Below, piece after piece: positions 57,399-58,978 of a DNA stretch of 64,000 nt (position 1 is the first letter of the stretch; each line of letters begins with the position of its first letter). The stretch lies in NCBI RefSeq assembly GCF_058153355.1, contig NZ_CM177019.1. The stretch is one strand, 5' to 3'. Under the pieces are notes generated by a model, which worked only from the letters and a program-made list of their open reading frames with translations, was not told the origin of the DNA and did no database searches. The position numbers and the translations under genes were made by a program.

Positions 57399-57806
57399 TC
57401 ACCCCGCCCGATGATGACAGCAGCCGGAGAGATTTTCGATAATTGGGCAGTCGGCGCTGTCATCACCGGGGCAGGCATTCGCCAGCGCCAGTAGCTGGTC
57501 GCGCATGGATTGCAGCTCCTCAATATGTCGCTCGATCTCCGCCACCTTTTCCAGCGTGCGCCGTTTAACGTCGGCGCTGTGCCGCTGCGGGTCGTTAAAC
57601 AGATTCACCAGCTCGCCGCTCTCTTCCAGGTTAAAACCCACCTGGCGTGCCTGCCGCAGTAAGGTCAGTTCGTTGAGATGCTGCTGCGTGTAAGTACGAT
57701 AACCGTTTTCGCTGCGCATCGGCGGCGTCACCAGCCCCTTCTCTTCATAGAAGCGGATTGCTTTGCTGGTCAGGCCGGTAATTTTTGCTACATCGCTAAT
57801 GTTCAT
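57399..57806 (-). CDS. cueR: MerR-family copper-responsive regulator
   Basis: 135-aa [29 protein letters not shown]… with C-terminal metal-binding Cys pair. Confidence 0.9.
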
Positions 57807-58978
57807 CGTTCGCGCAACGCCTCCTGTGCTTTGTTAAAGGGTTTCAACAGATAATCCAGCACGCTTTTTTTGCCGGTGCGGATATCGACCGTCGCCACCA
57901 TACCGGGGAATATCGGAAACTGCTGTTTGCTTTTATTTTCCAGATGGTTGCTGAAAGTGCGAATGTACACCCGATAGTAATAAACATCGCGTCGCACTTC
58001 ATCCTGCACGGTGTCTGGTGATATCACCGCCACTTCCCCCGGCAGGCCGCCGTAGATGGAGTAATCGTAAGCGGTTATTTTCACCAGCGATTTTTGCCCC
58101 GGATGGATAAACGCCACATCGCGGGGGGAGATTTTTGCCTCGATCAACAGTTGCTCATCCAGCGACACGATAGTCATAAGTTTACCACCAGGGGCGATGA
58201 CGCCGCCAACCGTGGTGACGTCAATGTCCTGAACAATGCCTCGCACCGGCGCGGTAAAGTTGAGCCTGGTGAGGGAGTCTTCCCGTCCACGGATCACCGA
58301 ACGCTGGGTTTCCACTTCCGCATTGGCTTTCGCTAACTCTTCGCGCGCCTGAACGTAATATTGCGTACGTACGTCGCTAAGTTTGTTTTCCAGTTCATTG
58401 GCCTGGCGTTGCAGGCGCAGCACTTCGACGCTGCTCGCCGCCCCCTGTTTTACCAGCGGCTGGGTCATCGCCAGTTCGCGGTTGACCAGGCTAATCCCCT
58501 GCGTCAGCCCGGTGGTGGCTTTGTTCAGCCCATCGCGGCGAGTGTTATATAACGCCGTTTCCGACTCGATAAGTTCGGGGAATTTATTCAGTTCGTCAGG
58601 GAAGACCAGCGGTTTATTGCTCACTTCCGCCCGCAGCCGCGCCGAGGTTGCCAGCGCCGCGTACAGCCGCGACATCGCTTCCTGGACGTCGGATTCCGTT
58701 TTGGTGCGGTTAAGCTGCGCCAGCGGCTGCCCCTGTTCGACAATATCGCCAACCTTCACGTCGAGATGATACAAAATCCCGCCTTCCAGCGACTGCACCA
58801 CCTGTTCGCGTCCAGAAGGTTCTACCGTGCCGCTGCCGGTGGTGACTTCATCAAGCTGGAAGTACCACGCCCAGCCGAGAAAACAGAGCAGCATCACAGC
58901 GGTAACGCGTACCGCCAGCGCCGAACGCGGCAAGCGGGGTTCAGTCAGGCCACGGTTGTATTGCAGTTGTCCGTTCAT
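57803..58978 (-). CDS. Type I secretion membrane fusion protein (HlyD family)
   Basis: 391-aa ORF with N-terminal TM anchor, coiled-coil and lipoyl-like regions; stop overlaps cueR start. Confidence 0.8.

Follow-up and report, generated by a model that had tools for sequence, protein, structure and literature searches.

In the 64,000-nucleotide stretch of DNA analysed here (the window), the stop codon of a HlyD-family secretion adaptor gene and the start codon of cueR overlap in the tetranucleotide ATGA. This overlap is likely the scar of an island of the O-island 28 type that lies flush with cueR, and cueR is likely expressed mainly from a weak promoter inside the codons of the adaptor gene, with read-through from the island added to it. 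In the proposed scheme, a type I secretion/giant-adhesin island would have come to abut the core gene cueR, leaving ATGA as the mark of the junction. The placement of glsA-ybaT and the island between the operator and the ATG in Escherichia would have turned the adaptor 3' end into the upstream region of cueR. Transcription would start chiefly at window position 57966, from a weak constitutive promoter (ATGAAG-N17-TACTAT) embedded in the adaptor codons, and longer island transcripts would also read into cueR.

The adaptor-cueR junction and its genomic setting

On the gene strand, which is the minus strand of the window, the junction reads ATGA (tcat on the plus strand) at positions 57803-57806, with the adaptor TGA at 57805..57803 and the cueR ATG at 57806..57804. 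The listing of open reading frames gives 58978..57803 for the adaptor and 57806..57399 for cueR, both on the minus strand; the two coding sequences have 4 nt in common (stop codon counted), and together they fill exactly the span 57399-58978 singled out by the first-pass annotation. Its claim that the HlyD-family stop lies over the cueR start is borne out by these frames, and the three bases it gave as common to TGA and ATG are, on counting, only two (T and G). Terminator prediction over the 3'-terminal 700 nt of the adaptor gene returned none. With neither a terminator nor a spacer between the genes, transcripts that reach the end of the HlyD gene would continue into cueR.

Statistically, an overlap of this kind is not unusual. 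Four ATGA overlaps occur within ~5 kb (qmcA/ybbJ at 54422-54425, one at 57192-57195, ABC/HlyD at 58975-58978, and HlyD/cueR), and ATGA and TGATG overlaps form an abundant class (PMC6728339). The non-random part is the conservation. O157:H7 Sakai, EDL933, K_EC180, E. whittamii and Escherichia sp. E1V33 carry the identical junction; by locus, it is seen in L002, L003, L004, L083 (Sakai), L090 and L099. Of the 5,426 complete E. coli genomes, ~959 have the overlap, as do two further Escherichia lineages.

The adaptor gene (57803..58978, minus strand) encodes a type I secretion periplasmic adaptor of 391 aa, an orthologue of hlyD28/z0635/ECs0544, which appears intact. In an NCBIfam profile search the protein scores 320.3 bits against TIGR01843 type_I_hlyD (cut-off 208.65). 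It is 97-99% identical to its Escherichia orthologues, the nearest being those of Escherichia sp. E1V33 (99%) and E. whittamii (98%). The C-terminus …EALRER has the same end residue in all full-length orthologues, the frameshifted copy of island strain L005 excepted. Judged from these alignments, the adaptor is full-length with a native C-terminus, neither shortened nor lengthened by its joining to cueR. The idea of HlyD-CueR fusion proteins, prompted by a CueR 90% cluster with a 391-aa 'HlyD' representative, was discarded: the sequences are plain adaptors with no CueR part, and the representative is a clustering oddity.

CueR is a model Cu(I) sensor of the MerR family. Its gene in the window (57399..57806, minus strand) encodes 135 aa, all 135 of which are identical to K-12 CueR, and the protein exceeds the cut-offs of both CueR models (308.6 bits against 244 for NF007590, and 207.5 against 147.4 for TIGR02044). 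The N-terminus MNISDVAK aligns with that of cueR from Klebsiella and Pseudescherichia, in which the ATG follows non-coding DNA, and the start of cueR is therefore secure.

The orthologous locus in E. coli O157:H7 is O-island 28 (hlyB28-hlyD28-cueR). Directly upstream of the adaptor gene lies the type I secretion ABC permease/ATPase gene, of the LssB type, and beyond it a giant adhesin gene related to SiiEA/BapA; annotated relatives have the same order (giant Ig-like/SiiEA adhesin, ABC permease/ATPase, HlyD-family adaptor, cueR). Of the island, the window contains the adhesin 3' end, the ABC gene and the adaptor gene, with tolC28 and the left end of the island lying beyond coordinate 64000. In EDL933 the island spans z0608-z0635 (tolC28, rtxA28, rtxB28, hlyB28, hlyD28) and cueR is EDL933_RS02800. 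In Sakai it comprises ECs0540-ECs0544, in the order ybaT, the TolC-like ECs0540, two giant ORFs, lapB (ECs0543), the membrane fusion protein ECs0544 and cueR (ECs0545); in locus L083 the last two lie at 33986..35161 and 35158..35565. The window resembles O-island 28 in its site (ybaT … cueR-ybbJ-qmcA), in the ABC-adaptor-cueR order and in the 4-nt overlaps, and its stretch from -200 to the cueR ATG differs from Sakai and EDL933 by two bases only. It differs in that its DNA is ~3-5% diverged from complete E. coli genomes and that its ABC gene is split. At this locus its identity to E. coli genomes is 96-97%. Between cueR and ybbJ, a YadA-like cluster (54973-57395) varies independently of the island, L090 being a case of the island without the cluster.

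In the ABC gene (58975..61136, minus strand; orthologue of hlyB28/z0634/lapB), the stop of which lies over the HlyD start, a 1-bp deletion near 60219 breaks the coding sequence into two frames, 61136..60210 and 60267..58975. The split falls at profile position ~297 of 696 (residue ~300), and the Sakai and E. whittamii copies are intact. The deletion may be a sequencing error; as the sequence reads, the window lacks the intact ABC gene of a functional secretion apparatus, and with the frame broken an operon-wide link to cueR is further weakened. O-island 28 itself is described as a T1SS/RTX adhesin system activated by RstA and Ca2+ and needed in early EHEC adherence, and cueR is nowhere mentioned in that study (PMC12758282).

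Transcription starts of cueR in island and K-12-type genomes

In EDL933, Cappable-seq gives a single gene-associated start for cueR (gene 2800, 604847..605254), namely gTSS 604687 (PMC10469882, Table S5). All eight conditions sampled, namely LB, M9, acid and salt in exponential and in stationary phase, show this start, and its relative read scores are 4.2-8.95. It is tabulated a second time as an internal start of the adaptor gene (gene 2795), at nucleotide 1012 of 1176 (PMC10469882). In NZ_CP008957.1 position 604687 falls on the A in GGGTGT-A-CATTCG, within the adaptor gene and at -160 from the cueR ATG; it lies 8 nt downstream of a TACTAT, with ATGAAG 17 nt further up. The window differs from the EDL933 promoter stretch by one spacer base, and the homologous start is accordingly placed by alignment at the same A, window position 57966 (minus strand). 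The -10-like TACTAT then occupies 57974..57979, within the codons for Tyr334-Tyr335 of the adaptor. The putative -35 hexamer ATGAAG (57997..58002, minus strand), assigned by its position 17 nt from TACTAT, is a weak match to the consensus (3 of 6 bases).

The combined element, ATGAAG-N17-TACTAT, agrees with the consensus at 7 of 12 positions. A consensus promoter scan of the minus strand from 57300 to 61400 returned no site, and with a simple weight matrix the mapped promoter ranks fourth in the gene and does not rise above shuffled sequence. As the motif is weak and is missed by the scans or unremarkable in them, the case for the promoter is carried by the experimental 5' ends and not by the sequence. 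TACTAT as a newly evolved -10 element was rejected, since conserved Tyr-Tyr codons spell the hexamer and 23 non-Escherichia orthologues have it too; its use, if it is used, would amount to exaptation. In four Escherichia sequences 10 of the 246 nt between -200 and +46 are polymorphic, compared with 139 of 1,580 nt for the whole gene pair. The low polymorphism is suggestive but thin as a sign of constraint, as a second, equally quiet patch is found elsewhere in the adaptor gene in the same four sequences. We infer that the same promoter fires in the strain of the window, and likewise the assignment of its -35 and -10 elements and the relative contributions of the routes to cueR.

The first-pass annotation had tied cueR to read-through from the secretion operon unless the gene has a promoter of its own inside the upstream coding sequence. 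The anatomy behind this statement stands, and the internal-promoter alternative is favoured by the EDL933 start at -160, so that the link to the operon is supported only in part. An internal promoter combined with no read-through transcript had been named as the result that would speak against the link; the EDL933 data supply the promoter, one half of that result, and read-through transcripts may exist all the same. A search for transcript data that cross the junction in an island strain returned none.

The K-12 upstream region, with which a comparison had also been suggested, keeps a 96-bp frameshifted remnant of the adaptor gene together with the ATGA, and has cueR starts of its own. The region was compared by megablast with 5,426 complete E. 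coli genomes, of which 5,424 matched in cueR and 959 in the adaptor gene. Matches of the K-12 type begin at window position 57902 (query position 1199), 96 bp upstream of the cueR ATG; the remnant corresponds to the ~96-bp HlyD tail at 57807..57902 (minus strand), and its last 47 nt are identical in K-12 and the window. PGAP calls it a frameshifted partial pseudogene with a 4-nt overlap with cueR, and the alignment shows a 1-bp deletion in an A-run. SMRT-Cappable-seq in K-12 places the start of the cueR operon at 513953, 40 nt before the ATG at 513993, and the same study reports glsA-ybaT-cueR transcripts (PMC6131387). The window position homologous to this -40 start is 57846, within the remnant. 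A further K-12 start, at -19, is given by RegulonDB v10.5 as tabulated in PMC10469882 (Table S5).

The junction ybaT/remnant/cueR is present in 4,458 of the 5,426 genomes, nearly all at an identity of at least 99%, as expected if one deletion event removed ~25 kb between short GTA matches. Of the adaptor gene, the K-12 interval (ybaT-cueR, b0486-b0487) has the last ~96 bp, ATGA included, in common with the window. It differs in lacking the ~25-kb island, deleted at a junction that shows GTA microhomology, and the -160 promoter. Where K-12 has TTGAAT, the island alleles have TGGATT. A sigma-54 site inside ybaT was set aside, as it lies 679 nt from cueR and is irrelevant to island strains.

Translation of cueR and competing readings

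ATGA is the classic geometry of termination-reinitiation, and the coupling-type arrangement recognised at first pass, a co-directional stop/start overlap, is indeed present. It can be taken to mean that cueR is the last cistron of the secretion operon, that its translation depends on termination and reinitiation at the adaptor UGA, and that CueR dosage follows the operon. We regard this as unlikely. In its favour are the geometry itself, the lack of a terminator between the genes, and the ATGA by which ABC and HlyD are likewise joined. The purine-rich AGGAGG at 57820..57825 (minus strand; Gln-Glu-Ala codons of the HlyD tail, its first A being the K-12 -19 start) points the same way: between it and the cueR ATG are 13 nt, which is long for a Shine-Dalgarno sequence and unfavourable to de novo initiation, so that coupling could contribute. 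Moreover, 13 of 14 overlapping gene pairs tested, five of the 14 from E. coli, were strictly coupled (Huber et al. 2019, PMC6728339). The window resembles the coupled ATGA pairs of that study in its co-directional 4-nt overlap and in the purine-rich motif upstream; it differs from them in that cueR has its own mapped start within the upstream gene and that the two products are functionally unrelated, unlike those of typical coupled pairs (PMC10666635).

Several observations argue against such a dependence. The primary cueR 5' end of EDL933 lies inside the adaptor gene in every one of the eight conditions, and transcripts that begin there cannot encode the full adaptor. The lack of an independent promoter that would mark a coupled pair is not seen, given the starts at -160 in EDL933 and at -40 and -19 in K-12. 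As many as 82% of complete E. coli genomes have no translatable adaptor yet rely on cueR, and in L005 the frameshifted adaptor frame stops ~40 nt before the ATG of an intact cueR. Since no ribosome would arrive at the adaptor stop in K-12-type genomes or in L005, coupling would not be essential, an indirect argument against strict dependence. RNA folding of the -160 leader and of the start region gave structures no more stable than those of shuffled sequences (z = +0.63), so there is no occlusion that would need a helper ribosome; a structure hiding the cueR start codon and thereby demanding coupling was dropped on the same value.

The AGGAGG was also considered as an Escherichia-specific adaptation for cueR, and this was rejected. 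The motif is encoded by the conserved K/Q-E-A codons of the adaptor tail and recurs in full in 7 non-Escherichia orthologues, so it is not clearly an adaptation. In the preferred reading, with the internal promoter as the main source, the -160 transcript, which lacks the start of the adaptor ORF, would give CueR by de novo initiation from the AGGAGG 13 nt upstream. On the longer read-through transcripts termination-reinitiation at the AUGA is mechanistically plausible and possible; it may add CueR and would not be required.

The 5' end at -160 could instead be a product of pervasive, spurious initiation, with cueR dependent on read-through from PtolC28 and from the internal starts 601588, 603894 and 604481/2. 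The EDL933 study lists 3,404 intragenic starts (iTSS; PMC10469882), the motif is weak, no better than chance, and TACTAT is a by-product of Tyr-Tyr codons that occurs in the 23 non-Escherichia orthologues with no cueR downstream. Yet this start is the sole one within 250 nt of cueR, it was seen in 8 of 8 conditions, and its scores equal or exceed those of the other island starts. In addition, a source of cueR transcripts independent of the island is needed, because the island promoter is regulated by RstA and Ca2+ (PMC12758282) and the ABC gene of the window is broken. Spurious initiation is on these grounds quite improbable. Finally, it is very improbable, and speculative, that a 32-codon ORF opening at the in-frame AUG at -95 (57899..57901, minus strand; Met360 of HlyD) is translated on the -160 transcript and drives cueR through AUGA termination, in the manner of a leader peptide: every island-type Escherichia sequence keeps this in-frame AUG and the ORF ends at the ATGA, but no Shine-Dalgarno-like sequence precedes the AUG, its conservation is explained by coding constraint on the adaptor protein, and cueR works in K-12, which has AUU at this place and a frame broken by the 1-bp deletion.

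Origin of the overlap and its meaning for cueR

A scan with the adaptor protein, one genome per species, returned 80 loci, among which cueR follows the adaptor in the Escherichia loci only. In many non-Escherichia orthologues, the nearest above all, the gene ends with TAA or TAG followed by a GC-rich hairpin, e.g. GAACGATAA-AAAAAGCCGGCGAAAGCCGGC. Because the orthologues share the end residue and this stop/hairpin arrangement, the adaptor gene is taken to be normally the last of its operon and the C-terminus in Escherichia to be native.

In Klebsiella and Pseudescherichia cueR is found ~100 bp from copA, head to head with it, and the CueR operator followed by TCAAGGGGGAAAG directly precedes the cueR ATG. 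A copA-cueR divergon has also been reported for Salmonella (PMC1526738). The ancestral divergon, as seen in Klebsiella and Pseudescherichia, has the same downstream genes (cueR, ybbJ, qmcA) and the same CueR N-terminus as the window. Unlike the window, it carries the CueR operator and a GGGGGAA ribosome-binding site directly upstream of cueR, with no glsA-ybaT, no island and no gene overlap. In the copA-glsA spacer of Sakai, homology to Klebsiella and Pseudescherichia ends directly after …GGAAGGTCAAG; the spacer retains the CueR operator through …GGGGAAGGTCAAG and diverges beyond. This break after the operator places glsA-ybaT and the island between the operator and the cueR ATG. The adaptor end and the cueR start have a short match, GAT(A/G)A, in common, and the joint falls inside it. 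Since in other genera the adaptor ends at …EALRER with TAA/TAG and a terminator, and cueR stands beside copA, the ATGA is most readily explained as a scar of insertion or deletion, the insertion having removed the ancestral promoter and ribosome-binding site of cueR.

A two-part supply of CueR in island strains, for which we see only a small chance, would go further. After the island had stripped the ancestral promoter and ribosome-binding site, a basal promoter exapted from the Tyr-Tyr codons would act together with read-through and AUGA reinitiation from the RstA- and Ca2+-activated adhesin operon. Were this so, the set-point of copper efflux would be tied to the gut adhesion programme, mutants lacking OI-28 (ΔOI-28) or hlyD28 (ΔhlyD28) would show altered cueR expression, and K-12-type lineages would represent a second promoter replacement after the deletion (TTGAAT at -52 and glsA-ybaT read-through).

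The arrangement as such is documented: reference annotations have contained it from the O157:H7 sequences onwards, and the cueR start is in a published supplement; in a literature search, no paper was found on the adaptor/cueR overlap or on the evolutionary scenario reconstructed here. No new mechanism is revealed, and the practical value is modest. The likely reading of the ATGA as an island scar, with a promoter inside the adaptor gene, accounts for a cueR with no conventional intergenic promoter in E. coli, where the DNA before it consists wholly of a secretion-gene tail or, in K-12, of a 96-bp relic of that tail. The mapped cueR start is lost when hlyD28 or all of O-island 28 is deleted, as was done in the EHEC colonisation study of 2025, and cueR expression and copper phenotypes may be affected. 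In general, the locus would be a natural case of promoter turnover at a core regulator, through the insertion of an island and then its deletion.

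Decay of the secretion locus upstream of cueR

In the window, the gene for the type I secretion ABC permease/ATPase (58975-61136, minus strand) carries a 1-bp deletion near position 60219, which divides it into two ORFs of 308 and 430 aa; the deletion is judged against K_EC180, Sakai and E. whittamii, whose orthologues are intact. Unless the deletion is a sequencing error, this genome probably has an inactive secretion system.

A decaying form of the island is found in E. coli SCPM-O-B-8794 (locus L005, about 3295-5522). Here the ABC gene is in pieces across three frames, and the gene of the HlyD-family adaptor is frameshifted, with its reading frame stopping about 40 nt 5' of the cueR ATG. 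The cueR gene itself is retained (97% identity).

In K-12 TG1 (locus L001) a frameshifted relic of the adaptor gene, ~96 bp long, lies between ybaT and cueR (2502-2599; homologous to window 57803-57902). Both mapped K-12 cueR starts, at -40 and -19 relative to the cueR ATG, fall inside this relic. The hexamer at -52 to -47 is TTGAAT in K-12, whereas the island alleles have TGGATT, and the K-12 version is a candidate for a new -35 element serving the -19 start.

The 3' side of cueR

Between ybbJ and cueR the window holds four ORFs that are absent from K-12 (54973-57395): a minus-strand ORF of 120 aa, a YadA-like trimeric autotransporter adhesin of 338 aa, and a 140-aa lipoprotein and a 67-aa ORF, these last two joined by ATGA. 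Sakai carries this cluster as ECs0546-0549. It varies independently of the type I secretion island, which is present in locus L090 with the cluster absent.

A promoter-like site, ATGACA-N18-GATAAT (10/12 matches; window 57414-57443, plus strand), is antisense to the cueR 3' end and directed away from it. In the Cappable-seq data of the O157:H7 strain EDL933, an antisense start was reported at 605353, about 100 nt past the cueR stop, in stationary phase (PMC10469882).

CueR in the protein collections

At 90% identity, the cluster holding CueR (2,601 members) is represented by a 391-aa HlyD-family adaptor and includes several further plain adaptors; none of these adaptors, the representative included, has any sequence in common with CueR. 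This co-clustering is probably an artefact, the bridge perhaps being a mis-called fused ORF that spans the ATGA overlap of the two genes (window 57803-57806, minus strand). A CueR-like NCBI protein of 200 aa (P0001) contains an internal partial duplication that repeats residues of the HTH-to-dimerisation helix. Its source is an assembly artefact or, alternatively, an uncommon tandem duplication inside the cueR gene.

The copA operator and the ancestral cueR start

The Sakai copA-glsA spacer (L083, 7071-7331) was compared with the Klebsiella and Pseudescherichia loci (L084 and L086). In these two genera the CueR operator of PcopA, CCTTCC-N7-GGAAGG, is positioned only about 13-14 nt 5' of the cueR ATG. 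Transcripts of cueR must there begin inside the promoter region of copA or beyond it. In Escherichia, the link of the operator and copA promoter to cueR is severed.
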